From positions 1 to 52,228 of the forward strand of contig JAQUME010000002.1 of assembly GCA_028718245.1 (NCBI GenBank): a stretch of 52,228 nucleotides of DNA, given 5' to 3'. Below, one piece after another: positions 2,634-34,035 of the stretch. The translations under genes were made by a program, and so were the position numbers. Each line of letters opens with the position of its first letter. The stretch's first letter is position 1. Below the pieces are notes generated by a model. The model was not told the DNA's origin. It did not search any database and saw only the letters and a program-made list of their open reading frames with translations. Source of the stretch: Candidatus Omnitrophota bacterium. GTDB taxonomy: Bacteria > Omnitrophota > Gorgyraeia > Gygaellales > Profunditerraquicolaceae.

Positions 2634-4183
2634 TAATCTTCCCTGACTATCCTTCCCCCGAACATATCAAGGGCGGATCTGATAAATGGGTTATTGTGGG
2701 CATCTGTTTCCTGCCTTGCCTGACTGGCCAGTACAAAATGCAGACGGAGGCTGGCATTGCATGATTCGGAAACGGCTTTTTCAATGATCAATTTATTTTC
2801 CTTGCGCTCCAGGGACTCTTTATGCAAGGAGTAATTCTTGGGGAAAGCCACCGTCAGGACATCCCCCTGCACCCTGGTCGGCTCCCCTTCGCTTAAATAG
2901 GTGGATACCGACATCTTGATCTTGGCCAGGTTATTGACGATATTGCCCCAGGCGTTCTTTACGTTATCCAAAGATACCGAAGGATCCTGGCCGGGAGATT
3001 CTTTGCTCACTTTCTCCGGAGAGGCCGCTTCCTTCTTTTCAGAATGAGGCGTTTTTGATCTTGGCTCAACAGGCGGCGGGGGAACTTTCGCCTGCTTCCT
3101 GTCATGGGAGAGCCTGACTAAACTTATTTCAAGCGGTATGCGCTGGGAATCCAGGCGCCTGGACATCTCCTGCGTGGATACTAAAATATTAAAGGCGATG
3201 AAAATATCTTCTAATGATAAAGCCTGGCTCTGTTTAAAGAGCCGGTCGCAAATATCCTGAGGCAGATCAACCAGCTTTGAGTCCGCCTTGGAAACTTTTG
3301 CCACCATCAAATTCCGGAAATGCTCGATAAGGTTAGAGAGGAATACCCCCGGGTCCTTGCCGTCATCAATGATCTCATTAAAAAGCTGTAATGCCCCTTG
3401 CGGATCCTTTTGGATTATCTTATCGGTAAGGGAAAACAAAACATCCTGCTCAACCATTCCCAGAACGGTGACGGCATCCTTAAGCGAAACTTTTTCCCTT
3501 GAGAAAGAGACCAGCTGGTCCAGGACGGATTCGGCGTCCCTTAATGAGCCGTCGCTGCTTTTGGCGATCGCCGAGAGGACCTCTTTATCTACCGAAAGCT
3601 TCTCATCGCGCACGATCTTTTCCAGTTGAGCAATGATCTCAATGACCGGGATCCTCCGGAAATCCATGCGCTGGCAGCGGGAGATGATCGTGGGCATTAC
3701 CTTCTGCGGATGGGTCGTGGCAAAAATGAATTTTACGAACTCCGGCGGCTCCTCAAGAGTTTTCAGCAACGCGTTAAAGCCGTCCGGGGTTATCTGGTGC
3801 ACCTCATCAATGATATAAACCTTGTATTTTCCCAGGGTCGGGGCGAACTTCACATTCTCGCGCAAGGCCCTGATCTCGTCTATGCCGCGGTTGGAGGCGC
3901 CGTCGATCTCAATGACATCCAGGGAGCGTCCCCGGTTTATCTCCAGGCACGAAGGGCATTTCTGGCAGGGCTTTACCGTAGGGCCATCTTTACAGTTAAG
4001 CGCCTTGGCCAGGATCCTGGCGGTCGAGGTCTTGCCGACCCCGCGGGGCCCGGTAAAAAGATAGGCGTGGGCAAGGCGGTTTTTCTGGATGGCGTTTTTA
4101 AGGGTGGCCGTGATATGGGCCTGGCCGACGACACTTTCAAAATCCTGCGGCCGCCATTTAAGGGCGAAAACAGTATAAGGCAT
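2633..4183 (-). CDS. dnaX: DNA polymerase III subunit gamma/tau
   Basis: Walker A GPRGVGKTS, Walker B IIDEVHQIT and sensor SRCQRMDF, followed by a Pro/Lys-rich linker and C-terminal domain. Stop overlaps the recR start (TAATG). Confidence 0.95.
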   Translation of the reverse strand: MPYTVFALKWRPQDFESVVGQAHITATLKNAIQKNRLAHAYLFTGPRGVGKTSTARILAKALNCKDGPTVKPCQKCPSCLEINRGRSLDVIEIDGASNRGIDEIRALRENVKFAPTLGKYKVYIIDEVHQITPDGFNALLKTLEEPPEFVKFIFATTHPQKVMPTIISRCQRMDFRRIPVIEIIAQLEKIVRDEKLSVDKEVLSAIAKSSDGSLRDAESVLDQLVSFSREKVSLKDAVTVLGMVEQDVLFSLTDKIIQKDPQGALQLFNEIIDDGKDPGVFLSNLIEHFRNLMVAKVSKADSKLVDLPQDICDRLFKQSQALSLEDIFIAFNILVSTQEMSRRLDSQRIPLEISLVRLSHDRKQAKVPPPPVEPRSKTPHSEKKEAASPEKVSKESPGQDPSVSLDNVKNAWGNIVNNLAKIKMSVSTYLSEGEPTRVQGDVLTVAFPKNYSLHKESLERKENKLIIEKAVSESCNASLRLHFVLASQARQETDAHNNPFIRSALDMFGGRIVRED

Positions 4184-4496: not shown

Positions 4497-4581
4497 TTTA
4501 ACCCCTCCTCTCTTTTTTTGTCAACGACCCCATTGCAATCTCCGAATCTTTACCGCTTTTTCTTCGGACCCGTCTGCAACC

Positions 4582-4591
4582 AATTCGAACC
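4582..4591. repeat. Left copy of 10-bp direct repeat AATTCGAACC (proposed attL core)
   Basis: Identical 10-mer at 22748..22757 in the same orientation. Its context ACCAATTCGAACC (4579..4591) is the exact reverse complement of 22785..22797. The composition shift to AT-rich DNA begins just to the right. Confidence 0.6.
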
Positions 4592-4795
4592 GCAGGCGAG
4601 ATCCAAGTAAAAATTGTTATTCATTCACTTCAACGAACCCCATTATACCAAAAACTAGCTAAAAAGGTAGCAGAATTATCTTTGCTTGGAATGTCACTTA
4701 GGGCGATAGCTAAAAGTTTAAAAACCAGCAAGAAAACTGTAACTAACGCCTATTTATATTACGGGAAAAACACTCCTAAGCGACAATCCAGCTAA
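4583..4795 (+). other. Start-less open frame encoding a resolvase-type HTH; proposed displaced 3' segment of the serine recombinase gene
   Basis: Frame is open from 4502 to TAA at 4793..4795, with no ATG before 4691. It translates to IRTAGEIQVKIVIHSLQRTPLYQKLAKKVAELSLLGMSLRAIAKSLKTSKKTVTNAYLYYGKNTPKRQSS. The IRT codons within the repeat are in the same phase as the recombinase ORF at 22749..22757. Confidence 0.45.
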
Positions 4796-4839
4796 TGTTC
4801 CTCTATTTTCTGTCGTTTTTGTCGTGTTTTTAGATGGCC

Positions 4840-5541
4840 TTAGTTATGTAACCTATTGATGACAAACACGCTACAATAAAGTTTTGTAAATGCAGCGACA
4901 TCTCCAGCCATCGCCTTCTGTCTTTTATTTTCCGCATCATAACCCTTTGCCATTTTTTCAAGTATAACTTCTGTCTCCTTAGTCCTGGCCTTAAAAACAT
5001 CATAAGCACCCTGCCATTGCTGTGAATTTAATGAACTCACTAGTTTTTTTACTGATTCCGTTGTTCTTTTCTCCACCTCTTCTGTCTCTTCTTTTATACT
5101 CTCGACAGCGTCTAAACCTTGTTCTCTGCTCAGATATCCTAAGCGACTTAAAAACACAAGTGTGTTCATTTCAATTTGATCACACATGAAAATTGTACGA
5201 GCTTTTTCATAATCCGACAAATTGTCCGAATATGATAGGCGCCATAATCTCTGATAGCGCAATCTTGAATTACTAAGTATTTCTCCCAGTAGTTCGTCTT
5301 GAAAATTTACTCCAATTTCTAAAGAATTCTCTGACCGTACATTTGCTATATACCGCTCTACTGTCCTGATGCATACTTGCAATATCTCTGCTATGTCTTC
5401 TTTTTTATATCCTCGTCTACTTTTATAATACACAGCTAATTTCTCTAATACTGCCTTGTCCAACATTTTAGGATCAATTTTACGATTCTCAATCTGTTGT
5501 GCTACCTCTGGTATCGATAAATCTTTACTGTTGTTTTCCAC
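4840..5541 (-). CDS. Hypothetical protein with N-terminal HTH
   Basis: 233 aa. HTH-like segment KKEDIAEILQVCIRTVERYIANV. SD-like GGAGGGAG lies 3 nt upstream of the ATG. The rest is helical and acidic with no recognisable family. Confidence 0.5.
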   Translation of the reverse strand: MENNSKDLSIPEVAQQIENRKIDPKMLDKAVLEKLAVYYKSRRGYKKEDIAEILQVCIRTVERYIANVRSENSLEIGVNFQDELLGEILSNSRLRYQRLWRLSYSDNLSDYEKARTIFMCDQIEMNTLVFLSRLGYLSREQGLDAVESIKEETEEVEKRTTESVKKLVSSLNSQQWQGAYDVFKARTKETEVILEKMAKGYDAENKRQKAMAGDVAAFTKLYCSVFVINRLHN

Positions 5542-5571
5542 AGCTCCCTCCTTTGCTAAAAGTGGTTAATA

Positions 5572-5621
5572 AACAAAAAACGGCCATTGAGATAAATTCC
5601 AATACAAATCTCAATAGCCGT
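5572..5621 (-). terminator. Rho-independent terminator-like hairpin downstream of the 5746..6198 gene
   Basis: 14-bp arms ACGGCCATTGAGAT (5580..5593) and ATCTCAATAGCCGT (5608..5621) with one mismatch. On the minus strand they are followed by TTTTTTG (A-run 5575..5580 on plus). Confidence 0.6.
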
Positions 5622-5745
5622 CTGTTATTTTCCGGCAACTACTATGCTACTTTTCGCTAGCTACATTACAAGATCCTAAAATCTAATTAAATTATAACTC
5701 TCTATAAAACCCCGTCAAGTAAAAACTGAACCTCTAACCAAATAA

Positions 5746-6198
5746 TCACAATCCTAAAAGGCTCCATCGATTAAGAAATTTTTCTTCATCATCCCTAAAA
5801 GTTCTCATTGAGGTCTGATTATGTTTCTGACCCTTCTGCCCAAGAGTCTTAAGCCATTTTCGATTATGTTTTTTTATAGAATCGGCAACAACTTTACTAG
5901 GGACAATATAGAAATCCGCAGGCTCTCCATAATTCAAACTGACGAATGCGTAAAAAAGATTTGCGGCATAATACTTTTCCGCTTTCTCATTGAGCACCCA
6001 TGCCGATCCTTTACTATACCGAGTCTTTACTTGTATGGCTACGCTTCTTTCGGCTTTCTCATTTGTTGCAAGAATATCTACTCCCTTTGAATTCCGAAGC
6101 GTTATTGAAGCAATATACCCACGCCTAGAAAGCTCGCCAGCTACTAAATATTCGCCGGCCACTCCTGATAAAACTGAATTCAGTTTACCATTCTTCAT
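5746..6198 (-). CDS. Small PD-(D/E)xK-type nuclease-fold protein (Hjc/YraN-like)
   Basis: 150 aa. Motifs GVAGEYLVAGELSRRGY, GVDILA (Asp) and AIQVKT (QxK in place of ExK) have the spacing typical of restriction-endonuclease-like folds. The C-terminus is basic. Confidence 0.5.
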   Translation of the reverse strand: MKNGKLNSVLSGVAGEYLVAGELSRRGYIASITLRNSKGVDILATNEKAERSVAIQVKTRYSKGSAWVLNEKAEKYYAANLFYAFVSLNYGEPADFYIVPSKVVADSIKKHNRKWLKTLGQKGQKHNQTSMRTFRDDEEKFLNRWSLLGL

Positions 6199-6211
6199 AG
6201 CTCAAATAATA

Positions 6212-6231
6212 ACACCGTATTCATACGGTGT
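6212..6231. promoter_or_regulatory. Operator-like perfect palindrome ACACCGTA-TTCA-TACGGTGT
   Basis: 8-bp perfect inverted arms with a 4-nt spacer. It lies in the 66-bp divergent intergenic region, 14 nt from the nuclease start codon. Confidence 0.6.
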
Positions 6232-6257
6232 CAAGACTAATAGAATTCTGGGATAAT

Positions 6258-6277
6258 ACACCGTATGGATACGGATA
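6258..6277. promoter_or_regulatory. Second operator-like site ACACCGTA-TGGA-TACGGATA overlapping the XRE start codon
   Basis: The left arm is identical (8/8) to the 6212 site and the right arm matches 5/8. The ATG of the XRE gene (6265..6267) lies inside the site. Confidence 0.5.
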
Positions 6278-6480
6278 TAAGATTAAAATTGGCTAAGAGA
6301 ATAAAAGAGTTAAGGAAGAAAAAGGGTCTGACTCAAGAGCAGCTATCTGAACAGTCTGGAATTGATTACAAACACATACAACTTTTAGAGAGCAATAAAG
6401 CATCTGCCGCAAAGCTAGATACGATTGAGAAGCTTGCCAAAGCCTTCAATATGAGCCCTTCAAAATTGCTGAAATTTTAG
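6265..6480 (+). CDS. XRE-family HTH regulator (controller/antitoxin-like)
   Basis: 71 aa. Canonical Cro/C1-type HTH LTQEQLSEQSGIDYKHIQLLESNK. Divergent from the small nuclease gene. Confidence 0.85.
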   Translation: MDTDIRLKLAKRIKELRKKKGLTQEQLSEQSGIDYKHIQLLESNKASAAKLDTIEKLAKAFNMSPSKLLKF

Positions 6481-6517
6481 ATAAAATTCTGCCTCAATGA
6501 TTAAGCTCTCGAACAAA

Positions 6518-6991
6518 TTACTTCTTAACATATTTACTCAATAAATATAATCCTATTACTATAACTGCAATTACAAGTAAAACGCGTAAGAATTCTTTAC
6601 TTTCAAATTGTAATTTTAATTTCTCTATATAGTGATTTGCGTTTATATATGTCAAATCTGGATTACTTTTATCAAATTCAATATATTCTCTCCCTGCCAA
6701 TAATCCTTTCAAGGTAATACCTTTCTCTACAATAGGTATAAAAGGAATGTATAATGCTTTTGCGGTAGCAATTTCCTGATTTACGATTTCTGACCTCGAT
6801 CCATTTTGAGTTAATATTGCCAAAACACAATTACTATCTTTTATATTTGATTCGATCTTCTCCCACAAGTCCAATCCAGGCCTAGCATCAGATAAAGCGA
6901 CATAAGCTTCAATTCCTCTGTGCTTCAAAATATTGGTGAAATCATTGACCAAATCCATATCTTTCGTACTATGACTTATAAATACTTTCAT
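6518..6991 (-). CDS. TIR-domain protein with C-terminal transmembrane helix
   Basis: N-terminus KVFISHSTKD is typical of bacterial TIR (TIR_2-like). A conserved Glu context SRSEIVNQEIATAKAL is followed by IPFIPIV. The C-terminal hydrophobic helix is FLRVLLVIAVIVIGLYLLSKYV. Confidence 0.7.
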   Translation of the reverse strand: MKVFISHSTKDMDLVNDFTNILKHRGIEAYVALSDARPGLDLWEKIESNIKDSNCVLAILTQNGSRSEIVNQEIATAKALYIPFIPIVEKGITLKGLLAGREYIEFDKSNPDLTYINANHYIEKLKLQFESKEFLRVLLVIAVIVIGLYLLSKYVKK

Positions 6992-7090
6992 TACATCGCT
7001 CCGTTTTTAAAGATTAGTGTAATTAAAAAAAGCGAAGCATTAAAAAATAAAACCTACGGGCTATCAAATAAACACGGCTAAATCTCACGC

Positions 7091-7726
7091 CTAAAAAGCA
7101 TCAATGAGGGCTAAAATTGTCTCAATTATCGCAGGATCATCTTCTCTTGTTAATCTTAAAGTAAGTTTATCAATTGAAATTGCATTATTATTGATATTCA
7201 ACTCAAAAGCTCTATCTAAAGCGAGCTTTGTTCTGTCTAATTTATAAAATTCAATAGTTCGCCTTCCTTTTAATGAATTGTTCTTCGGAATTATTAATAA
7301 CTCCTCTATAAAATCAATGTGATCCGGATAATCATCGAAATAAGGATGGACAATATTAAACTCCTCCCCTCTCATCGGATAATCAACGCAAACAGGATCT
7401 ATTAAAGTAGAACGTTGCCCTTTCCCAAAATTGCACAGTTGACATGAATAAGCTAAATTATGAGATACAAAGGTAAATTCCTCCCTGGAACCTTTAGGAA
7501 CGATGTGTTCAATATGGGGATAAAATTGCCCACTTGGCACATGTAATCTACAAAAAGCGCATCTGTCATTTTGCTGCCTTCTTAAATGCTCTCTTATCCT
7601 ATCCTTTACTTCTTTATAATGCTTATCTTTCCAAGGCTTACCTAATGCACGTCCAGTAATTATGATTTCATTATCATGCTGTGTAAAAACGTAAGGATTG
7701 TTAATTCTCCAATTATAGTTTATCAT
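7091..7726 (-). CDS. ptuB: HNH endonuclease, Septu PtuB-like
   Basis: CAFC...HIEHIVPK...N...CQLCNFGKG, i.e. an HNH/His-Me finger with two CxxC pairs. It overlaps the upstream ATPase gene by 14 nt. Confidence 0.65.
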   Translation of the reverse strand: MINYNWRINNPYVFTQHDNEIIITGRALGKPWKDKHYKEVKDRIREHLRRQQNDRCAFCRLHVPSGQFYPHIEHIVPKGSREEFTFVSHNLAYSCQLCNFGKGQRSTLIDPVCVDYPMRGEEFNIVHPYFDDYPDHIDFIEELLIIPKNNSLKGRRTIEFYKLDRTKLALDRAFELNINNNAISIDKLTLRLTREDDPAIIETILALIDAF

Positions 7727-9239
7727 CTTGGCTCGCTAAAAACTTTTTATTTAACTTTTCGATTACGGCTTTCAACGGGTCAACATCTTTCAATTGTAGT
7801 TTTACTCTATTTAACTCTCTTATCTTATTATTTATACTCTCGCTATTATAATCACCAGTAGAAATTTCTTTTAATAAATCACCAATTTCATTAGCCAAAT
7901 AAAGGTTGCGTGTTGTAGCAGCTCCAAAAATGTTATATAAAACATCCTCAGCAGACCACCCATAGGTATTACTCTCGATTAACTCTGCTTTTATCGGACT
8001 TTCTGGAGTATCTCTTGTCAAGCCTATTATTGAAGATGTGTCTTTCTCCAAATCTGAAACTAAAAAATGGGAGTGAGAAGCGATAATAAAATGTGCACTT
8101 TTATATTTCCCGAAAATCTTTTTTAAGAAATTAATATACTTTATTTGCCAATTAGGATGAAGACTGATTTCGGGCTCATCTATAAGGATCAAGCTATCTT
8201 CCTTTATTTTTGCTATCATACTCAACATAGAAACAAGAAAATGATACTCCCCAGAGCTACTACTTTCTAATTCATAGTCGCTATCCCCTTCGCTTTCTCG
8301 TTCTAAACCAAGACTCGGATAATATAATAAATCGAAAGAGCTCAGTTTTTTAAGCAACTCAAAATCATTTTTTAAATCATTGCTTGAGAAAATGTCATAT
8401 TGAAAATATTGAGTTCTAGCGCTTTCGTATTTTAATTTAGAGGTTATAAAATTTATAAATTTAATTAAGTCTTCTATCTCTTCATCCCGATCCTTAATGT
8501 TATTATAATATTTTAGACTCCATGGTTCAGTTTTTCTCTTAGTTATTTCTTTCCAATTCTCAAAAAAGGCTTTAAATTTCTTAATTGTTAGATCTCCTTT
8601 AAAAAAATAATGTTTATACTTGGGGTAATAGTAGACATACAATTTATGTTTTAAATTTAGAAAATCTAATATGTCACTCAAGTCTTTTTTAAAATCATCG
8701 CCATCTATCGCCTCTGCAATATTAGATACTGTTCTTCTAATGGATGTTTGTGTTCCAGCAGTTGAAGGACTACGTCTTATGCCCATATACTGATAGATAT
8801 CTTCCGGCTTACTTGGCACCATGGGGAATTTATCATTAAGCATTATTGCATTCGCTATTATCTTCTTAGGTAATTTCATCTTAGAAATATCGATATGTGC
8901 GCCATTTTTCCTTGTATGAGATTCGGCAGGAACCGCAACATGTATACCATCCTTCTCAGCTTTGGAATGATTCTGAAATTCATAATAGTCATCATCAATC
9001 TTATACTTTATATAATAAGTTGCAGGCACATAATATTTCTTGTCTGATACTTGCATTGCAGACATTTCTCTGAATATATCAATGATAACTCGCAGAATAT
9101 TGCTCTTACCTGTTCCATTTGCTCCAATAAGCAAAGTTGTATAGGGGCCTTTCCCTTCTTCATTCGCATCGACAAAATTCAGTTGAAGGCTACCCAATGA
9201 GGGGTGTTTATTTAAAGTGAGAGCTAATAATTTAAACAT
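7713..9239 (-). CDS. ptuA: ABC/AAA_15-AAA_21-type ATPase, Septu PtuA-like
   Basis: Walker A GANGTGKSN, signature-like SSGEYH, Walker B LILIDEPEISLHP and H-loop ASHSHF. A long insert lies between Walker A and the signature, as in OLD/SMC-like defence ATPases. Confidence 0.65.
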   Translation of the reverse strand: MFKLLALTLNKHPSLGSLQLNFVDANEEGKGPYTTLLIGANGTGKSNILRVIIDIFREMSAMQVSDKKYYVPATYYIKYKIDDDYYEFQNHSKAEKDGIHVAVPAESHTRKNGAHIDISKMKLPKKIIANAIMLNDKFPMVPSKPEDIYQYMGIRRSPSTAGTQTSIRRTVSNIAEAIDGDDFKKDLSDILDFLNLKHKLYVYYYPKYKHYFFKGDLTIKKFKAFFENWKEITKRKTEPWSLKYYNNIKDRDEEIEDLIKFINFITSKLKYESARTQYFQYDIFSSNDLKNDFELLKKLSSFDLLYYPSLGLERESEGDSDYELESSSSGEYHFLVSMLSMIAKIKEDSLILIDEPEISLHPNWQIKYINFLKKIFGKYKSAHFIIASHSHFLVSDLEKDTSSIIGLTRDTPESPIKAELIESNTYGWSAEDVLYNIFGAATTRNLYLANEIGDLLKEISTGDYNSESINNKIRELNRVKLQLKDVDPLKAVIEKLNKKFLASQDDKL

Positions 9240-9307
9240 GTTTATTCCTCCCTGTCCTGCCTTAACATAAACTTCTTACACACAATTCTAGCTTAGAGGA
9301 CATCAAT

Positions 9308-9973
9308 CTAATTATAGCAAGCACATAGATACTGCATAAGCACTGACATTTCGAACAAAACACCATCAAAACCTTTATCCTTCTTTAGGTGTTTATTATA
9401 CGCTTCATTTCCAGATACTAAATGGTATTTTTTCTTCTTAAAATCCCATACAAACTTAATCCTTGTCTTATCCGGGGCTCTTGCGGATAGGATTGAAAAA
9501 GCCTTTTTTAAGCCCTTTGCATGTTCATCTTCGTTTACGCCGTACTTCTTACAGTGCTTAACAATATACTTTACCCGAAGCTCTCTAACATAATCCATCA
9601 GCATCTCATCTTCTGTAACGGTCTTATAGGAATCTGGCAAGAGATCATCTATAGTCTTTTTTTCAAAAACAAACCTCTGGTATTCGGTTATGTTATTTTC
9701 TGAAATCCATTTATCTATAGTCCCCTTACGGAAAACAATCTTATTCTTTGAAAGCTGTGAGAAAGGCATTACTTTACGCTTAATCCAAGTATCTATAGTT
9801 TTCACTGGTACGCGCAGATAATCGGCCACCTCTTCTTCATTAAAAACTTGTCGGTCAGTTTTCTTGATTAAAGAAGCTTCTTGGAGGGATTTTTGATCTA
9901 AAAACTCACCGCAATATCTACACTTAATTGCTTCGTCTTGAATTTCTTCAGCACAAAAAGAACATCTTTTCAT
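9308..9973 (-). CDS. Zinc-ribbon plus excisionase/MerR-type HTH protein
   Basis: From ATG at 9973 the protein begins MKRCSFCAEEIQDEAIKCRYCGEF (CxxC-x10-CxxC ribbon). This is followed by EEEVADYLRVPVKTIDTWIKRKVMPF (HTH_17-like). The track ORF extends to a TTG at 10009. Confidence 0.6.
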   Translation of the reverse strand: MKRCSFCAEEIQDEAIKCRYCGEFLDQKSLQEASLIKKTDRQVFNEEEVADYLRVPVKTIDTWIKRKVMPFSQLSKNKIVFRKGTIDKWISENNITEYQRFVFEKKTIDDLLPDSYKTVTEDEMLMDYVRELRVKYIVKHCKKYGVNEDEHAKGLKKAFSILSARAPDKTRIKFVWDFKKKKYHLVSGNEAYNKHLKKDKGFDGVLFEMSVLMQYLCACYN

Positions 9974-9992
9974 AATCAGTATTTGAAATAGC

Positions 9993-11393
9993 TTAATATA
10001 AAGTTTCAATAAGATAACCTCTGCGCCCAGAACAGGGATACCCGCTCTTATCCTTATGGCTATTCAAAAGATCAGTATTGTTTTTTCTTCTAAATCTCTT
10101 CCCGCAATAGCTACACTCATATACATAAGTTATCTGAGAAGCATATAATCCTCCTATGCCAGAAAAAGATGATCTAACTGATCGCCTTCCACCTGAAGAA
10201 GAGAAATATTTGTCTCCATGATGTTCTCCTGCTTTTGATAATTCGACAGGATAACGAGGTGTAAATTTATCCTCAAGGCATTTAATTGAAGAAATCTTAT
10301 TGTTCACAAAACATTTAATTCCGGGACCGCTACTCCTACCTCCAGTTGTATCATAAGCGTAAAAATATTCTTGTCCATAACCATCCTGCCGAATTTTATA
10401 TACTAAAGAATATGGCTCAACAATTCTTTTGACACCATCATAAACTAGCTCTAGAAGACTAAAACTGCTTCCGGATTCCATTATAGGATTTCTTAATTCT
10501 GCTGGAAAATAACCGAAATGGGCAAAGCCCGTAGTGAAACTTCCAAAAAGTTCTTGAACTATTTGCCGGAAATTTATGAGAGCAAGATCGAAATCTATCA
10601 TACTAAATTTAGGACATACAATATATTGATTCCATATTCCTCTAAACACTTCTAGAGGCAGATTAAGTAATAGTTCCTTTGCTATTCCGGGACTTGGTTC
10701 ATAAATTGTTTTCTTTAGAAAAGTGGTGACGATTTCCGGTCTATTGACAGCAATGTCTCTATTAATGAATATAGAATAAATTAAATCATACAAATCATAT
10801 GAGTAACGCCTTTGAAGCAAACATTTTAGCTTAGTCGCTAATATTTCTTCTAACTTGATGCACCTTAAAAGTACACTACAATCAGAAGAGTCAGAATAGG
10901 GGTGTATTAAGAGCTTCTCTTGAACGGGCAAATAGATTTTATCAAGTTGTGTGATATCTAATCTTATCTTTATAATAATAGAATCCGGATTTCCATAAAA
11001 GTCTTTAAAGTATAATCTTACTTTAAATATTTTTCTCTCCTCGTCTCTCCCCCGAATCCCTATTAGAGATTCTTCATCAATTCTATTTTTATTTTTATCA
11101 AACTCTATTCTGCTCTTCTCTTGGACAAAATCACATATCTTATCTAGCTCGCTATGCAACAAATCAAATTGTAATTCACTTTCGGTTGTAAAATCTAAAT
11201 CATCAGAAAAACGAGTATGCACAAGATAAGCTTTCCGTAAGCAGTTCCCTCCCTTAAGAACCAGGGTATCTTTCAGTTTACTTGCAGAATATAGTCCAGA
11301 CAGAAACCAACCAAAGACATAATCTCGTTCTACATTAGCAACATTTATACCTAATTCTGTTGCCTTTTGTCCAATTTCATTCTTATCTATCAT
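9993..11393 (-). CDS. AbiEii/AbiGii-family nucleotidyltransferase fused to a C-terminal beta-rich (WYL-like?) region and a C2HC zinc motif
   Basis: N-terminal ERDYVFGWFL...LVLKGGNCLRKAYLVHTRFSDDLDF is the hallmark of DUF1814/AbiEii NTases. There is an extra roughly 170 aa: RIVEPYSLVYKIRQDGYGQEYFYAYD...IKCFVNNKISSIKCLEDKF, then YECSYCGKRFRRKNNTDLLNSHKDKSGYPC. Confidence 0.65.
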   Translation of the reverse strand: MIDKNEIGQKATELGINVANVERDYVFGWFLSGLYSASKLKDTLVLKGGNCLRKAYLVHTRFSDDLDFTTESELQFDLLHSELDKICDFVQEKSRIEFDKNKNRIDEESLIGIRGRDEERKIFKVRLYFKDFYGNPDSIIIKIRLDITQLDKIYLPVQEKLLIHPYSDSSDCSVLLRCIKLEEILATKLKCLLQRRYSYDLYDLIYSIFINRDIAVNRPEIVTTFLKKTIYEPSPGIAKELLLNLPLEVFRGIWNQYIVCPKFSMIDFDLALINFRQIVQELFGSFTTGFAHFGYFPAELRNPIMESGSSFSLLELVYDGVKRIVEPYSLVYKIRQDGYGQEYFYAYDTTGGRSSGPGIKCFVNNKISSIKCLEDKFTPRYPVELSKAGEHHGDKYFSSSGGRRSVRSSFSGIGGLYASQITYVYECSYCGKRFRRKNNTDLLNSHKDKSGYPCSGRRGYLIETLY

Positions 11394-11447
11394 AGATACA
11401 CTTCCTTAAAAGACTTGCCGAAGCGTTAAAAGTAAAACCTGCCGAGT

Positions 11448-12485
11448 CTAAGATATAGTTGCTACAATTACTCTCTTTACTAAATTTAGCAATTGTTTAA
11501 TTTCATTAGCATCCAAATGGACTTCTTGACCAGCAGTCTGCCAAGTAGATACTTGGTCTTTAAATTTTTCATCTACTAATCCTAGATTATGTGTAATAAC
11601 ATGTCTCTTTGCGAATTGATACTCTAGGAAAGTCTTATCCTTATCATCTATACTTGAAAAAATGTCTAGTTGCAAATTTGCTTTAAAGATTTGTTCTGCT
11701 TTAGATGGCTGTTGGAAAGAATTCCTTAATTTGCTTAATTTATCTTTACGATCATCCTCGCTAACCTTTCCCTTTAATTTATCGGCATATATTATTTTAA
11801 AGAAACCTTCAAATAGACTCACGCAATCCTCCAAGCTGTTACCTAAAAGATGATAGCCAGCTTCCTTGCCTGCCTTATTCACAATGGCATCATAACAATC
11901 GATTAGACTCATTATAATATCTACACTCTTATCCAGATGAAGTGCTAGATTTCCTTCACCGCAGAACGGGCAGTGCATCGAGATTCCATAGACCGCATAT
12001 CTTCTCCCACACCTATCGCAATCTATGATCCGTTTTAACTCATTTTCGGCATAGTGCCTAACGCTAGGAAGCGAACCTGGCTTATACTGTAAACTGATAC
12101 TAATAAAACCCTTGTTAGAAGACGGTGTACTGGATTTAAAAGTATCTCCAAGCATATCTTGAATCGTCTTCGCCACGTCTCTATATATCATTGATTCTAC
12201 CCACTCCGACTGACCCTTAGTGATAAATTGCTGAAAGCCATCTTTATAGCCACAATAAGGACAATATAAATATTCGAGTGACGTTTCTTCTTGGTTAGGT
12301 TCTACCTGTTTTTCGGTTTCAGGTTTATGGGAGGCTATTTTGAAATATTTTGGCTGGCACTCATCTTGATGACATTCACGGCCAACCATCCCATCTTCAT
12401 CTGGTGACAAAGGTATAACAAGCTTATCATGTCCTTCAGGAGTCTTGCCCTTATGGTACTTTTCCATATCATGCCACATATCCAT
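11448..12485 (-). CDS. Zinc-ribbon protein with C-terminal HEPN-like domain (Rx4H)
   Basis: CxxC pairs YCPYCGYKD and CDRCGRRY...CPFCGEGN. The C-terminal helical domain contains FAKRHVITHNLG (R-x4-H). The ATG at 12485 has an AAGGA SD 5 nt upstream. The track ORF extends to 12566. Confidence 0.55.
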   Translation of the reverse strand: MDMWHDMEKYHKGKTPEGHDKLVIPLSPDEDGMVGRECHQDECQPKYFKIASHKPETEKQVEPNQEETSLEYLYCPYCGYKDGFQQFITKGQSEWVESMIYRDVAKTIQDMLGDTFKSSTPSSNKGFISISLQYKPGSLPSVRHYAENELKRIIDCDRCGRRYAVYGISMHCPFCGEGNLALHLDKSVDIIMSLIDCYDAIVNKAGKEAGYHLLGNSLEDCVSLFEGFFKIIYADKLKGKVSEDDRKDKLSKLRNSFQQPSKAEQIFKANLQLDIFSSIDDKDKTFLEYQFAKRHVITHNLGLVDEKFKDQVSTWQTAGQEVHLDANEIKQLLNLVKRVIVATIS

Positions 12486-12510
12486 ATTTGTCCTTATTTC
12501 CTTAACGTTC

Positions 12511-12657
12511 TTATCGCGTTTCTTTTTCTTCTTTGTTCCATTCACACAATATCTTAAAAAATCCATTCAAATTATAACAGATCGCTTGATATTCCTCTTC
12601 GCTTATCTGTACACCATAAAACTCACCCCACTGTTCGATTTGTTCCTTTTTAGCCAT
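12511..12657 (-). CDS. Possible 48-aa small ORF translationally coupled to the RmuC-like gene
   Basis: Its ATG sits in ATGGCTAA, which overlaps the upstream stop codon. Translation: MAKKEQIEQWGEFYGVQISEEEYQAICYNLNGFFKILCEWNKEEKETR. It ends 25 nt before the 12485 start and is below the ORF-track length cutoff. Confidence 0.3.
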   Translation of the reverse strand: MAKKEQIEQWGEFYGVQISEEEYQAICYNLNGFFKILCEWNKEEKETR

Positions 12658-13993
12658 TTTCATTCTCATAGAGTGGAAGTCCTTTTAGGTCTTTCTGTAA
12701 AGTGACTGGGAATGCAATGCCTTTTGCTTCGGCCTCTTTCTGAATTTTATCATTATCAGACTCGAGATCCTTGTTGAGAATCTGTTTAGAGCGTCTCTCC
12801 TGGGGAGGATTTAGCTTTTCCGATTTTTCAAACTCAATTACCTTATCGAGTATTTCTTTAGGAAGATCAGCTTTACATTTAGTAAGAATATCGAGAAATT
12901 CCCAAGTAAAGAAATGATCAATTTGAATTCTTCGTTTTGTCATGTGAGCAAATTTACCAATTATACGACAGATATTTTCCCGTTCCTCTGGATTGAGCTG
13001 ATTAACAAATTCATAATCTTCTATTTTCTTAAGAGTAAGTATCAATGGCTCCAGCACATCTATGGTCACTATATAAACATTGTAATCGGCCATATTGTAA
13101 CTGAATGATTTGATAACTTGCACTGTATTAGATGGTATGACAAGGTAGATATCCCTGCGAACATTTTCTTCCTTAATATACTTCCTTATCGATTCAGTCT
13201 GAGCCTTAATATAATCAGGAAAATTATCAAGATTTTCCGAAGAAGGACTTTTGGCATCGAAAATGATATATTCATCACATAGCTTAATGGTATTATCAGG
13301 ATTACCTTTAAATGGAACCTTCTCAACATACTCGATAGTATGCTTATCACATATCATTTTGACAGTTTGCTTAACACTTTCTTGATGCTTTAACCAAGTT
13401 TCCTTCATTGACTCAATACGTAAAATCTCACTTTTCTGTCGCTCTTCTTGTTCTTTTTGACGATCAGTCTGGATTTCAGTTCTTATAGCATTAAGGCCTG
13501 CTACATCATTCTCATATTTTATCTTTCGATCCGACTCTGTCTGTTTAAAAACAATATTTTCTTTCCTGAGCTGCTCAACATTATTAGTCAGTTGCGCTAC
13601 CTGTTCTTTGACCAAGATGGATTCTTTATCTTGGTCAATTATCTTTTTTTCGGAAGACCTTATCTTCTCATCTTTCGCAGCAACTGAAGATTTAAGTCCG
13701 GATATCTCTTGTGCTGCCCTATCAAGCTCCTTATTTACATTCTCCAGAGAACTCTCTAACTTGCTTTTTTCTAATTTGAGATGTCCATTCTCGTTATTCA
13801 AGACTGCAATTGAATTCTTATTCTGCTCTCCTTCTTGAATAATTCGGTCGAGCAAATCTGATATTTTTTTAAATTCTTCATAGGCATCATAGCTTAATTC
13901 TTTCACTGGACGCCATCCGAAAATCCTCTGCCAAAAACCTAAACTCTTAATTTTTTCAAAAAATAAGCTAAGTTTTTCAGTTTTTGTATCCAT
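12650..13993 (-). CDS. RmuC-like coiled-coil nuclease-domain protein
   Basis: Long N-terminal coiled coil. C-terminal PDNTIKLCDEYIIFDAKSP...RKYIKEENVRRDIYLVIPSN matches the RmuC PD-(D/E)xK core pattern. Strong SD AAGGAGG lies upstream. Confidence 0.55.
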   Translation of the reverse strand: MDTKTEKLSLFFEKIKSLGFWQRIFGWRPVKELSYDAYEEFKKISDLLDRIIQEGEQNKNSIAVLNNENGHLKLEKSKLESSLENVNKELDRAAQEISGLKSSVAAKDEKIRSSEKKIIDQDKESILVKEQVAQLTNNVEQLRKENIVFKQTESDRKIKYENDVAGLNAIRTEIQTDRQKEQEERQKSEILRIESMKETWLKHQESVKQTVKMICDKHTIEYVEKVPFKGNPDNTIKLCDEYIIFDAKSPSSENLDNFPDYIKAQTESIRKYIKEENVRRDIYLVIPSNTVQVIKSFSYNMADYNVYIVTIDVLEPLILTLKKIEDYEFVNQLNPEERENICRIIGKFAHMTKRRIQIDHFFTWEFLDILTKCKADLPKEILDKVIEFEKSEKLNPPQERRSKQILNKDLESDNDKIQKEAEAKGIAFPVTLQKDLKGLPLYENENG

Positions 13994-14019
13994 GTCAACC
14001 TCCTTGATCTACCCTATAA

Positions 14020-14064
14020 ACAAAAAACCCTCGCTTGGGCATACTTGCCTATAGCGAAGGTTTT
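14020..14064 (-). terminator. Rho-independent terminator after the DUF2779 gene
   Basis: Arms AACCCTCGCT (14026..14035) and AGCGAAGGTT (14053..14062) with one mismatch. On the minus strand the hairpin is followed by TTTTTTG (A-run 14022..14027 on plus). Confidence 0.6.
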
Positions 14065-14164
14065 ACTTTTTTAACGTCCGGGACTTCCCCCTTCAAACAC
14101 GGGACTTACCAAATTGTTATATAAAGATTAACACTTTTTACCTTAAAGTCAAGCGAAATGATGC

Positions 14165-15649
14165 CTAGGCCGCTATTAGTTCTTTTAGTTTTTCACCAAT
14201 CCAAACCATGCCCTTTGTATCTAAGCAGCAATACTTTTCCAATTCTTTTCTTGTTTTTGCCTTCTCTTCATCAGAAACTTTCCCGAAAGTAACATTCAAA
14301 TATGATATACTGGCAACCTGCCCATCAGATATTTCCATATCTTTATAACCTTTACCAGTTATTGCTGGTAGAACTGCCTTGATAGAAGCGCTTCCCTTCT
14401 GTTCAGAATTATAATATTGGAAGTCTTGAAAAGGAGCGAATAAATCCACGATTCTTCCCACTATGCTATCGATCTCTGCCTTATGTTCAGGAAATGCCTC
14501 AGCAAGTTCTCTTAGTCTTGTCTTTTCAAAAGACGAATAAACAACCACGCTTCCCTTATCCCCCAAGACACTAATTAATGAAGTAACTAGTTTCTTCCTC
14601 GGATCATCAATGCCATCAGCGAGAAAAGAACGATGTTCAATTTCACCATCTTTATCTTTTACTATATGTATAGAGAATTGGAAAGGAATCTGCTGATATG
14701 GTTTTGTGCCATCGAATCTTGGAATAGCAGTCATATAACTCTCAAAATCTAGATAATACAGAGGATATAGTAATGAATTAATAAAATTTTTAATGTCTTC
14801 TTTTGAAATATGCACGGAATTGGTTAAAACACATTTCTTCTGAATAAGCTGTTTCTCGGTTAGCTTAAAACCATCCGGGATATCCTTAATTTCACATATA
14901 CCCCGTGCAAATAGCTCAAAGGATTTCTTGCCTCCACGAGTTAATTCAAAAACATTATTTATGGGTAGAAATTCCCAACAGTGGCCCTTCAAAAGACATT
15001 CATCTGGATCTTTGCAATGCTGACTTATAGTGATTTTAGGACATTCTTTTTCATGAATGATTTTTACCATTTCTTCAATTTCTTTTTGGATATTCTCTGT
15101 ATCAATATTGACATTGGCAGTTATATCTTCTATCTTAAACATTCCATGAGGATCAAGTCCTCCTTGCCGTACATATCCGTTATTGATATAAGCGATGCAA
15201 CATTTCCTAATTTTTAAACCTGCTCGTTCACAGCAAAATTTCTGAAAAGAAATTTCAGCAATGTAATGAGATTTTATATCTGTTGCATTTTTTATATCAA
15301 TAATGTCCCACAAATCATTATCTACTGGCTTTAGAATATCTATCTGAGAATATATATTATCAACTAAAATACCTGCCCCAAATATCAACTTACGCTGTTT
15401 TATGAAAGCCCTTGTTTGCTCAATATGGCTTGCGAAGTCTTCAATAGGGACTTCTATCCCTCCTGGATACAATTGCTGAACTAGCTCACCAACTAATTTT
15501 CTCTCATTAATTCTATATCCAGCAACAATGTCGGGTTCTGGAATTAGTTTAGGGGATCCAAAAGTAACCCATAGATACTTTGGGCACTGCAAGCCATGCA
15601 TATACTTTCTTTTAGTAAGAAGTTTATCTATTTTCATTCCGATTTTCAA
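14165..15649 (-). CDS. DUF2779-family protein (Cas4/RecB-like Cys-cluster nuclease N-domain plus exonuclease-like C-domain)
   Basis: N-terminus KRKYMHGLQCPKYLW, Cys cluster HCKDPDECLLKGHCW, and the motif YYLDFESYMTAIPRFDGTKPYQQIPFQFSIH characteristic of DUF2779. 34 nt downstream of the helicase gene. TTG start at 15649 or ATG at 15637. Confidence 0.6.
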   Translation of the reverse strand: MKIGMKIDKLLTKRKYMHGLQCPKYLWVTFGSPKLIPEPDIVAGYRINERKLVGELVQQLYPGGIEVPIEDFASHIEQTRAFIKQRKLIFGAGILVDNIYSQIDILKPVDNDLWDIIDIKNATDIKSHYIAEISFQKFCCERAGLKIRKCCIAYINNGYVRQGGLDPHGMFKIEDITANVNIDTENIQKEIEEMVKIIHEKECPKITISQHCKDPDECLLKGHCWEFLPINNVFELTRGGKKSFELFARGICEIKDIPDGFKLTEKQLIQKKCVLTNSVHISKEDIKNFINSLLYPLYYLDFESYMTAIPRFDGTKPYQQIPFQFSIHIVKDKDGEIEHRSFLADGIDDPRKKLVTSLISVLGDKGSVVVYSSFEKTRLRELAEAFPEHKAEIDSIVGRIVDLFAPFQDFQYYNSEQKGSASIKAVLPAITGKGYKDMEISDGQVASISYLNVTFGKVSDEEKAKTRKELEKYCCLDTKGMVWIGEKLKELIAA

Positions 15650-15682
15650 AAGGGTTTATTTTAAAGTTTATTCCAAATTCTT

Positions 15683-18600
15683 CTAGGTAAACAATTCGTT
15701 TTGCTTTGTTGACAAGTGGATACGGACTCTTTTATTCGTCTCATATTCTTCTATCATTCCGAGACGCTTCATGTCTGTAAGTACACGCATAACCCTTTTA
15801 CGTAGTTTTTCACGATTACGCCCTCGACAAGCATATCCAAGATCTCTCAACACTCTATCTGCAATCAAATCTTTTCCTTGACTGCCATCTTTTAATAATG
15901 TTCGAACTGCATCAAAAATCTCTTTACGTTTTCCCCCATAAATTAACCCTTCCCTCTCTTCAGCATATGATAGAGCTGCCGATAATCTATCTTCTTCATT
16001 TATTTTTATCGCTTCCTCTTCCTGTAATGGCTCAACTGACTCAGAGATCAGGTGAGCTTGACCATCTTCAATAGTCTTTGGGTCTTCTACTACAACGGAT
16101 TCTGGCTCAAGCTTTCGATCAGAAGGAAATATTCCCATCTCATCCAAAACTTGCCATAATGGTTCAAGCGCCTGCTCGGGTTCTCTATAAAAAGCACTCC
16201 CCCTAATTCTCCAAAACCGCCACCCCGATCTTTCAAGTATTCGCTGTCGCCATTGATCGTGCTCATATTGTTCAGGACCATGCCATTCGTCTCCATCGCA
16301 TTCTATTGCGAGTCGTTTCGTTGTTCCTTCGACTACAAGATCTATTCGATGCTCAGCAACTTTAAACTGTGGAATGATTCGGTATTTATGATTGATAAGC
16401 TGTAGAAAAACGTCAACTTCAAACCAACTTTCAAATGGGTCAGGAACGTTACTTCTACTCTTATGGCTATAACCTGAGGCTTTGCGTAATTCTTCAAGGT
16501 CAAAATCGCCCAAGGCTATTGGAGCAGCCAAAGGATTTAAGCAATATGACAACAAAATATGTCGGTAATCACTTGGACTTAAATCATTAAGCGTTGCGGA
16601 GTAAAAGAGCCAAATCTGATCTCGTGCACGGCTAAATGCTACATTAAATCTTCTTTTGTCTGTTTCTCTGGCTAAGGCACCAATTCTATCGTTTGGAGCG
16701 GCAACAAGGCTTAAAAATATAACATCCCTCTCATCTCCTTGAAATGCATAAGGATCACCACAAATAAGGTTTCTACGTTCTATTTCCTCGGTACCGATTT
16801 TATCAATTAACATGCTCTTTATTAACTGATCTTGTGCATGTCCTTGTAAAACAATAACACCCATGCTTTTACCTTTATATAACTTATCGTTACAGCACTT
16901 AACGATCTGATCAACTACCCTGACAGCTTCAACCTTATTAATAACTAACTGCCCATAACCTTCCTTATAGCCATCCTTAACGTATACTGCTTTTATAGGC
17001 TCTAATCTTTGCGGTGGAGCAGAACGAAGAGGAATAAGGCTAGCACCTAATGGCACATAACATAAATTATTAGAAAATTGAATTATCTCAGGCACGCATC
17101 TAAAATGCTCTTTTAAGAATATCTGCGCTTTATAGCGAATTTTGGCATGTGTAAAAAGACTACTCTGAAGACCATAGGTTTGCCTTAAGGGAATATCTTG
17201 AAGGAATCTTTCAATCAATAAATCAACTTCCTTCGGATCTAAACCAACATCTTCTGGGCTAATCTGTTGATCGTCTCCTACTATTATACATTTCTTAGCT
17301 ATATAAAATAAGGCGATGGCTTCTGGACCAGATTGGCTAGCTTCATCGACAATTACAACATCAAAAATTTCTTTATCAGGCTTTATTGACTCAACAACCC
17401 TATAAAGAGGCATTATCCATGCAGGTATCGCACCTCTACACTCTTCCATATATCCCGCTGCTTCTCTTCGATACTTTTCAGCATGCTTACCCGTTCCTTT
17501 ACCTATTTTACGAATTGCATGACTCCAAGCCACAAGATTTTGCCGTTGAGTCTCGGTCAAGCTAGATAAACAATTATTCCAAGCTTTTTCAGAAGCTAAT
17601 TCTGCCATTGTCTTTCTTAGTTTTTTATCAATGTCTTGGTAATCGTGCTGTAATTGATACTCATCGTGGGATTCTTCAAATTCCCTAATCCAAGCGTCAG
17701 CCCTAAGCCAATCCCATGCTTTTTCAAATTCAGTAGCATATTTATCAAACTTATTATCGAAAGGATTATCGTGAATCGAATCAGCTAATATAGGCGCTTT
17801 TTCCTTTAAGCGTTTAATTAAATCAACACAAGTGCCCAACTGTAAATGATCACTTTCTAAATGGTTAAGAATCTCATATGTTTTACTCCAGCGATTCCAA
17901 TCTCGAGCTTCAATTGCTTCCAATAAATCATTATTTAAAGGATGGGAATCAGAATTGGGGATTAAAGCTTTAAGAGAAACCTTAATCTTCTCCATTCCCT
18001 GCTCAATCACTATTAACTTATCTACAATAAATGTTCCTTCTAGCGCTTTAATTAAATTTATAACTTGAGTTTCATCATGCCACGATGGCTCATGTATCAC
18101 GCAAATCTCAGAAACAATTTGTTTTGTTTTACGAAGCGGCTCTTCAAGTGATAAAACTACATCCAAAGCTTCAATCTGTTCAAGGTACATAGCAACGCGG
18201 GCAACGGCTGAACCTTGCATAATCTCAATCTTTTCTTTCCAAATATCATTCAATTTCCTTAAATTTGTTTCCACGTCAATGTAATTAATAAGTTTTCCAA
18301 GACAATCCGTATTATCACAATACCTACCATTAACTAAAATAGAGGTTAATAAATATTTTATTTTAGAATAGATTTTCGGTCTAACTATCCACCACCCTAA
18401 TCCTTTACCACCATCTAAATGTTTTTTGAGATCTTCTGCATCAGCTTTAATTTTTTGTAGATCCAAATCTTTTGGTATAGAAAAATTATTTTTATCGGCT
18501 AATTCTGCTGTATTCTTCAATTCACTTAAATAAGATTTTGTAGCAGAAGCTAATAACTTAAGCGGCTCATCCTGATCACCTAAAATTGCACAAACACTAT

Positions 18601-20587: not shown

Positions 20588-20620
20588 CGTATACCTCTTT
20601 TAATTAATACGTTGTACATG

Positions 20621-20824
20621 TTAATCTTCTAAAAAGAATCCCGGGGTTTTCTTAAGTACTTTAGCTATCTTTACCAATGTTTCAATTGAAGGCATTGAAA
20701 TGCCATTCTCGTAGCGGGAGATACTCTTCTGTTTCGCCCCTATCTTCTTGGCCAGCTCGCTTTGATTTAAATCAAACACAACCCTAGCAACTTTGATCCT
20801 CTTACCTAGCTTTTTAGCATCCAT
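20621..20824 (-). CDS. XRE-family HTH regulator heading the helicase operon
   Basis: HTH LNQSELAKKIGAKQKSISRYENG. The ATG at 20824 is preceded by AGGAGG with a 4-nt spacer. The track ORF start at 20851 would overlap the divergent -35 box. Confidence 0.8.
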   Translation of the reverse strand: MDAKKLGKRIKVARVVFDLNQSELAKKIGAKQKSISRYENGISMPSIETLVKIAKVLKKTPGFFLED

Positions 20825-20844
20825 TTTACCTCCTAAAATAATAC

Positions 20845-20872: not shown

Positions 20873-20928
20873 TTAGTCACTACAGGAATATTGAGATTTT
20901 ATACTACTAAAGGCTAATATATACCTAT

Positions 20929-22894: not shown

Positions 22895-22900
22895 AGTATT

Positions 22901-34010: not shown

Positions 34011-34035
34011 TTTCTTTAATAGGTTTCTAAAAAAA

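Follow-up and report, generated by a model that had tools for sequence, protein, structure and literature searches.

The window analysed here is a stretch of 52,228 nucleotides (nt) on contig JAQUME010000002.1 of a Candidatus Omnitrophota bacterium. Within it, three consecutive minus-strand open reading frames (ORFs), here called g1, g2 and g3, encode a zinc-ribbon protein with a HEPN-like domain, an AbiEii-type nucleotidyltransferase (NTase) with a long C-terminal extension and a zinc-ribbon helix-turn-helix (HTH) protein (Table 1). The genes are separated by gaps of 54 nt (g1–g2) and 19 nt (g2–g3), and a further 68 nt separate g3 from the next gene, which encodes PtuA. A preliminary description of this DNA had proposed that the three genes form a new module. 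Comparison with related loci, labelled below by L numbers, indicates instead that they are probably separate defence cassettes lying side by side in a mobile island, and not one co-evolved system.

Domain composition of g1, g2 and g3

All three genes come from conserved protein families whose homologues number in the hundreds to thousands, and they do not represent chance patterns. The start of g1 is likely at 12485, because about 120 homologues of 340–350 amino acids (aa) begin at the MDMWHDM methionine; the family comprises ~200 clusters at 90% identity. In an alignment of 41 homologues, eight cysteines are invariant (C38/C43/C75/C78 and C156/C159/C172/C175), and the C-terminal half carries the invariant block NxLED...FE...Y...FQ...RH..TH...D. 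Within this block lies RHVITH (11589–11606, part of KRHVITH), of which R294, H295, T298 and H299 are invariant in the same 41 sequences. A profile built from the C-terminal domain alone retrieved 1027 representative clusters with several architectures; in the 147 best-scoring of these distant relatives, the R/H/H of the motif are at least 90% conserved, as is the D. Further upstream, FEGFFK in the window corresponds to FEGFLK in the consensus; its E226 is invariant, and K230 is conserved to at least 90%.

The AlphaFold2 model of g1 (mean predicted local distance difference test score, pLDDT, 82) combines a small N-terminal half, rich in beta structure and holding the zinc ribbons, with a C-terminal half made up of helices only, in which DSSP assigned a long helix at 207–237, holding E226-x3-K230, a helix at 281–297, a loop at 298–305 and a helix at 306–318, with pLDDT >90 around the RHVITH region. 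HEPN domains have been described by an Rx4-6H motif with a polar N, D or H after the arginine, an upstream E-x3-[KR] in helix 2 and placement of the motif where a helix ends and the following loop begins (Anantharaman et al. 2013, PMC3710099). In g1, a polar histidine follows the arginine, the E-x3-K pair lies in a helix and the motif sits at a helix end within an all-alpha bundle. Structural searches point weakly in the same direction: the best Foldseek match in the PDB was HepT 7bxo_F (probability 0.90, TM-target 0.57, weak E-value of 0.24), and among the 50 PDB matches listed, all those with a probability >0.2 were HepT/SO_3166 chains (7bxo, 5yep, 6m6u, 6m6w). The other HepT/SO_3166 chains had probabilities of 0.2–0.66, and 2q00 reached 0.20. 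E-values were weak, from 0.24 upward, as a consequence of searching with the full 345-aa model. Single-sequence and profile searches of the PDB with g1 yielded zinc-ribbon matches only, hhalign of the g1 C-terminal profile against one faint DUF4145 neighbour protein was negative and Foldseek comparison of the model with viral structures returned nothing. Taken together, the C-terminus of g1 is very probably a HEPN-like RNase domain belonging to a family without a model in the 2025 copy of Pfam used here.

The N-terminal zinc-ribbon region of g1 is the only part of the locus that matches the PADLOC candidate system PDC-M14, through its component PDC-M14A. Nothing points to the complete system: partner profiles of PDC-M14 were absent from the matches listed for g2 (the best 25 of 30), for g3, for six genes flanking them in the window and for ten neighbours of g1 homologues. 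A literature search on PDC-M14 found nothing.

The second gene opens with the AbiEii hallmark KGGNCLRKAY..TRFSDDLDF and matches both Pfam AbiEii (E 2.4e-22, residues 29–208) and the PADLOC AbiEii profile (E 3.2e-47). Among 39 homologues, K47-G48-G49, R61-x-S63-x-D65-x-D67, K188/K190 and D200/D203 are invariant, and the top PDB match in Foldseek was MenT3/Rv1045 (7c46, E 4.9e-7, probability 1.00). R61 and S63 occupy the positions of MenT3 R76 and S78, and D65 and D67 presumably correspond, by spacing, to MenT3 D80 and D82. In MenT3, antitoxin-induced auto-phosphorylation of S78 switches the toxin off (PMC11375011).

Compared with MenT3 (288 aa), g2 is ~170 aa longer, the extension running from a beta-rich segment through a disordered linker to a C427-x2-C430...H446...C454 motif. 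Five strands were modelled at 312–376 with pLDDT ~90. The PADLOC WYL profile PDLC01652 matched 14 of 17 family C-termini (best E 1.8e-5; 2.1e-3 for g2 of the window) and PDLC01457 matched 9 of the 17; Pfam WYL matches were weak and limited to 4 of 39 members at E 0.015 or weaker. For this domain, Foldseek gave one relevant match, the Sm-like structure 2e12 (probability 0.66, weak E-value of 0.42 with the whole model as query). In the terminal finger, C427 and C430 are invariant, with conservation of at least 90% for H446 and C454; zf-BED matched 21 of 39 family members (best E 2.3e-5), with g2 of the window at 14.8 bits, below the 20.6 cut-off. A profile search of the PDB with the g2 C-terminus matched C2H2-type fingers only and no WYL structure.

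The extension is a regular feature of a large family. Full-length searches retrieved >2000 clusters at E ≤1e-3, the best 120 of which cover 96–100% of the query, and the end of the PADLOC AbiEii profile PDLC02317 matches 17 of 17 family C-termini, so that part of the extension is already covered by an existing profile. Fusion of WYL to an 'AbiGII-like nucleotidyltransferase (DUF1814)', a family that includes AbiEii, was catalogued by Makarova et al. in 2014, with ligand regulation proposed (PMC4012209). The NTase–WYL architecture of g2 is thus not new, having been catalogued computationally at that time; our search of the literature found no experimental work on AbiEii–WYL fusions, and we found no description of the BED-like finger at the end of the protein or of the absence of an antitoxin throughout the family. 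Next to g2 itself, the upstream gene is g1, which has no AbiEi family match.

The third gene combines a zinc ribbon with an excisionase/MerR-type HTH and an unannotated C-terminal domain, and its full-length family comprises ~60 clusters, the named ones mostly from Omnitrophota. At the level of single genes, the preliminary description therefore holds well: the three consecutive genes with short gaps, the CxxC ribbons and KRHVITH of g1 (eight invariant cysteines and an invariant RHVITH, with the start moved to 12485), the AbiEii hallmark of g2 with a ~170-aa extension bearing a WYL-like beta segment and a C2HC motif (profiles, model and conservation), the zinc ribbon and excisionase-type HTH of g3 (Zn_ribbon_3 and HTH_17) and the absence of a canonical AbiEi gene were all recovered. 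Its assignment of the Rx4H region of g1 to HEPN also agrees with the motif, the E-x3-K helix and the position at the helix/loop boundary, with a weak fold match.

Table 1. Coordinates of g1, g2 and g3, of their domains and of the features discussed beside them.
Feature	Position	Strand	Basis or remark
g1, zinc ribbon + HEPN-like, 345 aa	11448–12485	-	ORF to 12566; homologues start at M28
g1 N-terminal domain, two Cys4 zinc ribbons	11952–12485	-	PADLOC PDC-M14A, E 7.3e-14 (ORF residues 49–204); zinc-ribbon Pfam families only
g1 C-terminal all-helical HEPN-like domain	11451–11951	-	E226-x3-K230 in long helix; RHVITH at helix end/loop start
g2, AbiEii/MenT-type NTase + WYL-like domain + C2HC zinc finger, 466 aa	9993–11393	-	
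g2 NTase domain, residues 1–295	10509–11393	-	Invariant columns, Foldseek MenT3
g2 WYL-like beta domain, residues ~310–380	10254–10466	-	Pattern EPYSL...EYFY...GIK.F...KI
g2 C2HC (BED-like) zinc finger, residues 421–466	9996–10133	-	
g3, 221 aa	9308–9973	-	Start = ATG at 9973
g3 zinc ribbon	9899–9973	-	Zn_ribbon_3, E 3.4e-5
g3 HTH_17, excisionase/MerR-type	9695–9835	-	E 2.1e-8
g3 C-terminal domain, ~120 aa	9311–9676	-	Unannotated
Window segment absent from L125	9975–11466	.	Last ~6 g1 codons + 54-nt spacer + g2 + 19-nt spacer
Septu system, directly downstream of g3	7091–9239	-	PtuA 7713–9239 (E 2.5e-109), PtuB 7091–7726 (E 3.6e-40), PADLOC profiles
TIR protein, 157 aa, hydrophobic C-terminal tail	6518–6991	-	34% identical over full length to L008 TIR gene (L008 9019–9522)

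Conservation of the arrangement and the sister islands

The most telling evidence against a single unit comes from two sister islands, L125 and L008. L125 carries, in order, genes for a DUF2130 protein, a DUF2188 protein, a 53-aa product, g1 and g3, with only 52 nt between the last two. Comparison by blastn aligned window positions 11467–12609 with L125 5911–4776 (86% nucleotide identity, g1) and 9271–9974 with L125 6703–6000 (88.5%, g3), leaving between them the 1.5-kb segment that contains g2; because g1 directly precedes g3 in L125, the aligned sequences point to this segment being a single-gene insertion. L008 shares the same backbone, and its g1 is 93.5% (nucleotide) and 97% (protein) identical to that of the window; there, a 167-aa TIR gene comes next and overlaps g1 by 20 nt, neither g2 nor g3 is present and homology with the window ends 6 nt past the g1 stop codon. 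The gene after g1 thus differs in each of these three related islands (g2 in the window, g3 in L125 and the TIR gene in L008), which provides a clean example of cassette shuffling within defence islands.

The wider survey covered 36 independent g1-family loci (30 species-representative genomes from many phyla, archaea included, three exact-protein look-ups, L125 and two viral contigs) and, for extended AbiEii, 77 metagenomic loci together with L006 and L129, of which ~73 remained after removal of duplicates. An extended AbiEii gene lay within 5–6 kb of g1 in none of the 36 g1-family loci, and g3 accompanied g1 in L125 only. Likewise, g3 relatives were absent from all 79 other extended-AbiEii loci, and AbiEii from all six other g3 loci. 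Extended AbiEii showed no conserved neighbour of any kind, the largest neighbour cluster being drawn from six related loci; the 112 proteins directly flanking it matched 82 Pfam families, of which only recombinase domains reached three occurrences, and no AbiEi family was among the Pfam families matched by at least two of these proteins.

Two observations on flanking genes are recorded here. Small DUF2188-like proteins, assigned by eye, are encoded just upstream of extended AbiEii in L061 (81–320) and L065 (4192–4431), and DUF2188 proteins lie upstream of g1 in L008 (7599–7832) and L125 (4458–4724), with a 53-aa ORF between. In L006 (4961–7488), the extended AbiEii gene comes right after genes for an XRE-type HTH protein and an M78 (ImmA/IrrE-like) peptidase, beside a prokaryotic E1/E2-like pair; the XRE/M78 arrangement is possibly an alternative regulatory set-up for this toxin family.

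Several points weigh against regarding the three genes as independent. The short gaps, shared strand and lack of a predicted terminator between them fit one transcript and leave room for interaction in this island. Distant full-length relatives of g1 occur near extended AbiEii in 2 of the ~73 loci: in L061, the relative lies 6 nt downstream of AbiEii on the same strand, in reverse order, and in L106 it lies 1.3 kb away on the opposite strand. Genes of the g1 family often precede an effector-like gene, so g1 may cooperate with the gene that comes after it. Sampling of the loci relied on peptide-pattern scans and on flanks of ≤6 kb, and many of the contigs were short. As regards the domain calls, no Pfam HEPN family (DUF86, DUF3644 and DUF4145 included) matched g1, its 41 homologues or the 147 distant relatives; the HEPN assignment draws on the motif together with a fold match that is weak (Foldseek E 0.24), and more generally motifs, fold matches and weak profile matches are the basis for placing g1 in HEPN and g2 in WYL. 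Finally, the regulation of g2 in cis, discussed below, is something that we infer.

The first two of these points have to be read in context. The short gaps make co-transcription of g1, g2 and g3 likely, and this is a property of the present island, not evidence of a shared mechanism; a scan for promoters and terminators gave counts at the level of shuffled sequence and is uninformative on operon structure. The co-occurrence in L061 and L106 exceeds the random genome-wide expectation for a rare family, but is no higher than that reached by other defence genes in the same set.

If g1, g2 and g3 formed one toxin–antitoxin-like module, in which one of the two enzymes, NTase or HEPN RNase, modified or controlled the other and g3 regulated transcription, then their common direction and spacing without a predicted terminator, the adjoining of a HEPN-like domain to an NTase and the proximity of extended AbiEii to a distant g1 relative in two other loci would all find an explanation. 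Such a module is nevertheless very unlikely, given that synteny is not conserved (0 of 36 g1 loci; 2 of ~73 with another order or strand; 0 of 79 for g3), that sister islands contain g1–g3 without g2 and g1–TIR without g2 or g3, that g2 is a DUF1814/MenT enzyme of a type known to act on tRNA and not a minimal MNT, and that g1 is unmatched by any Pfam HEPN family, DUF86/HepT included.

This outcome also bears on the more ambitious claims of the preliminary description, which had seen in the trio an undescribed system built on the logic of HepT/MntA pairs. A HEPN-fold protein does adjoin an NTase of the polymerase-beta superfamily, and HepT is the best fold match of the g1 C-terminus. However, the NTase is a 466-aa DUF1814 protein and not a minimal MNT, the HEPN protein has 345 aa and zinc ribbons and is not DUF86, and the g1–g2 pairing is absent from the 36 g1 loci and from ~97% of the g2 loci. 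At the level of protein families, the analogy therefore has no basis. Nor is a new system supported: there is no conserved unit, the genes not being syntenic elsewhere and sister islands lacking g2 between g1 and g3, and the NTase–WYL fusion had been listed in 2014 (PMC4012209). The extension, described there as longer than expected for the family, turned out to be common. Recognition that the proposed three-gene system is not a conserved unit saves effort, and it leaves two widespread single-gene candidates, of which the AbiEii–WYL–zinc-finger family is the more interesting.

The distribution of g3 provides a further argument. In all six other contexts (L011, L013, L125, L126, L130 and L131; g3 at ~5001–6666 in each), the gene stands at the 3' end of a different string of genes, and the genes after it differ as well. 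The preceding strings include genes for an nSTAND NTPase, a metallo-beta-lactamase-fold protein, an Mrr-like nuclease, a DEAD/MZB helicase and a sigma factor. Nucleotide identity of g3 is 74–88% across L011, L013, L125 and L126, where the flanking genes are completely different; L130 and L131 hold more distant full-length relatives. On this basis, g3 may serve as a backbone gene, or as one at the junctions, in a family of mobile islands from Omnitrophota. That it could be a non-canonical downstream AbiEi-like antitoxin or repressor of g2 is suggested by the 19-nt gap and by its layout, an HTH followed by an uncharacterised C-terminal domain, which loosely recalls that of AbiEi. We consider this role extremely improbable, since g3 relatives occur in 0 of 79 other extended-AbiEii loci and AbiEii in 0 of 6 other g3 loci, g3 is kept at 74–88% nucleotide identity across islands with entirely different flanks, and no AbiEi Pfam family matches it.

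The neighbours of the g1 family bear on a different alternative. Eight g1-family loci contain HsdS, and HsdM, HsdR, other restriction–modification (R-M) genes and GmrSD are also found; in a subfamily of 318 aa, the layout is often hsdM, hsdS, g1, other genes and hsdR. TIR, SIR2 or ThsA genes lie just downstream of the g1-family gene in 5 of ~32 loci examined. In four, they follow it immediately on the same strand (TIR in L008 with the 20-nt overlap, TIR in L030 at +110 nt, SIR2 in L029 and an overlapping ThsA in L034); in L032, a 184-aa ORF comes first downstream and TIR second, at +654 nt. In addition, a GajB-like UvrD helicase gene lies directly 3' of g1 on the same strand in L003.

From these loci one might suppose a modular two-gene system in which g1, as sensor or back-up RNase, is the constant component and the effector downstream of it varies, being TIR, SIR2, ThsA or a UvrD-like helicase and, in the window, AbiEii–WYL. 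The run of same-strand effector genes downstream, the two co-occurrences with AbiEii (L061 and L106) and the published fusions of DUF4145-type HEPN domains to TIR and UvrD (PMC3710099) all agree with this idea, as does the TIR–transmembrane (TIR-TM) gene 4.5 kb downstream in the window, which is 34% identical to the TIR of L008. It is unlikely all the same: many loci have an opposite-strand or unrelated gene next to g1 (L018, L020, L022–L025, L033 and L040), the next gene in L125 is g3, an HTH protein, ThsA in L034 precedes a 183-aa ORF in the position of ThsB and may belong to a self-sufficient Thoeris system, and ~97% of the sampled extended-AbiEii loci lack g1. Should g1 nevertheless be such a component, g1 and g2 could act on the same RNA pool, for example by tRNA cleavage and 3'-end nucleotidylation, a joint action to which we give similarly little credence. 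An extended AbiEii that unites toxin and sensor in one polypeptide, with the WYL/zinc-finger module replacing an antitoxin, is more likely than a g1-based two-gene system.

Candidate roles and relation to known systems

With g1, g2 and g3 read as separate cassettes, g2 would be a self-contained, solitary MenT-like nucleotidyltransferase toxin. Its likeness to AbiE/MenAT systems extends to the N-terminal 295 aa, which correspond to Pfam AbiEii, match the fold of MenT3 (7c46) and keep the K-G-G and R-x-S-x-D-x-D motifs. MenT1 and MenT3 add nucleotides to tRNA 3' ends (PMC7450476, PMC10435456), and by analogy the same activity is expected of g2. In contrast to AbiE/MenAT, a cognate AbiEi/MenA gene, usually upstream, was not found by g2 or across the sampled family, and g2 carries ~170 additional residues (WYL-like domain and C2HC finger) and behaves as a solitary cassette. 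Its NTase–WYL combination is the same as in the WYL fusions of Makarova et al. 2014 (PMC4012209).

The WYL-like domain and zinc finger may act as a sensor of a ligand or of nucleic acid that replaces the antitoxin and holds the enzyme off in cis. The off-switch could be auto-phosphorylation of Ser63, which MenA/AbiEi antitoxins bring about in trans, or occlusion of the active site. Sensing of a phage-derived nucleic acid or nucleotide would then release the enzyme, which would add nucleotides to tRNA 3' ends and so stop translation. The antitoxin-less MenT/AbiEii family raises the question of whether a fused sensor can do the job of an antitoxin in cis and thereby couple tRNA poisoning to an infection signal, a question that can be tested in this family because antitoxin-induced auto-phosphorylation has recently been shown to control MenT toxins.

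For g1, a stand-alone zinc-ribbon HEPN RNase, most likely metal-independent, is proposed, with a most likely role as an abortive-infection or back-up RNase, as for HEC-08; the zinc-ribbon half may bind nucleic acid or a trigger derived from phage or R-M activity. HEC-08 is a single gene combining HEPN and zinc fingers that gave phage defence in assays, an effect lost on mutation of the Rx4-6H histidine (Payne et al. 2024, bioRxiv 10.1101/2024.01.29.577857). Both proteins join HEPN and zinc fingers in one chain and are embedded in another defence system, and the best structural match of HEC-08, SO_3166 (5YEP), is among the matches of g1 too. They differ in that HEC-08 has an N-terminal DUF3644 HEPN domain and C-terminal zinc fingers, whereas g1 has the reverse order and no DUF3644 match, and in their hosts, Hma for HEC-08 and type I R-M operons and islands for g1. 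Accordingly, g1 is not a member of HEC-08, and the resemblance is functional and architectural only.

A second group of relatives by context is formed by the R-M-linked HEPN proteins (PrrC/RloC, DUF4145, Abi2 and ApeA; PMC3710099), which g1 resembles in that its family lies between hsdS and hsdR or by other R-M genes. DUF4145-type HEPNs are known as fusions to zinc ribbons, TIR and UvrD helicases (PMC3710099), and TIR and UvrD are also seen as neighbours of g1. Unlike these proteins, g1 has no profile match to DUF4145 or another Pfam HEPN family and lacks the ABC-ATPase of PrrC/RloC. The presence of this zinc-ribbon HEPN family inside type I R-M operons adds to the 'embedded defence gene' idea (Payne et al. 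2024) and to the PrrC/HEC-08 theme. The third gene, g3, may be an island-associated DNA-binding protein, acting as a regulator of the flanking cargo or as an excision-type factor.

A housekeeping role was considered for the three genes and rejected, as all three families are found alongside R-M, Septu, TIR, Thoeris and recombinase genes in mobile islands of low GC content. Among 2.9 million viral contigs, only two relatives of g1 and one of g2 were found, and the two families are not typically phage-borne.

The surrounding island

The three genes lie in an integrative, mobile defence island of ~18 kb (~4565–22900) with a GC content of 33–38%, compared with ~50% in the rest of the window. It is flanked by dnaX (2633–4183) on one side and by tRNA-Ser(gct) (22803–22894) on the other, where the 3' end of a large serine recombinase gene (21135–22859, plus strand) overlaps the tRNA gene. 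Nearly all of the cargo is on the minus strand and consists of defence-like genes. A search for direct repeats marking the ends of the island or of the g2 insertion found only short ones at chance level and no att-like repeat.

In the source metagenome, from a landfill, the region is contiguous at ~20x. The contigs of four landfill metagenome runs were compared, the other runs being too shallow for presence/absence variants. Unitigs of the source run X1 break at 9879–9908, 11450–11479 and 12388–12417, close to or at junctions between cassettes. The first two breaks fall near either end of the g2 segment, and the one at 11450–11479 coincides with the boundary of g1 and g2, which is only suggestive. 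In run X3, a contig of depth 2 joins 5985 to 13859 via 18 unrelated bases, a hint that a variant of the island lacks the whole g1-to-TIR block.

Other cargo differs among the related islands. The complete Septu system (PtuA/PtuB) that follows g3 is missing from both L008 and L125; the TIR-TM gene beyond it is the one noted above, 4.5 kb downstream of g1. On the other side of g1, a 447-aa coiled-coil protein without a confident family (12650–13993) occupies the position of the DUF2130 protein of L008 and L125, with which its similarity is not significant. Further along, a 494-aa DUF2779/Cas4-like nuclease (14165–15649) stands next to a 1634-aa superfamily 1 (SF1) helicase (AAA_11/AAA_12; 15683–20587) with a C-terminal MTES_1575/DUF559 restriction-endonuclease-like domain, a slot that in L008 holds an SNF2 helicase and an RNase_H_2 protein instead. 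Elsewhere in the window, at 34035–36371, three tRNA-Ser genes (gga, cga and tga) alternate with three mutually unrelated membrane-protein-like ORFs of 207, 219 and 237 aa.

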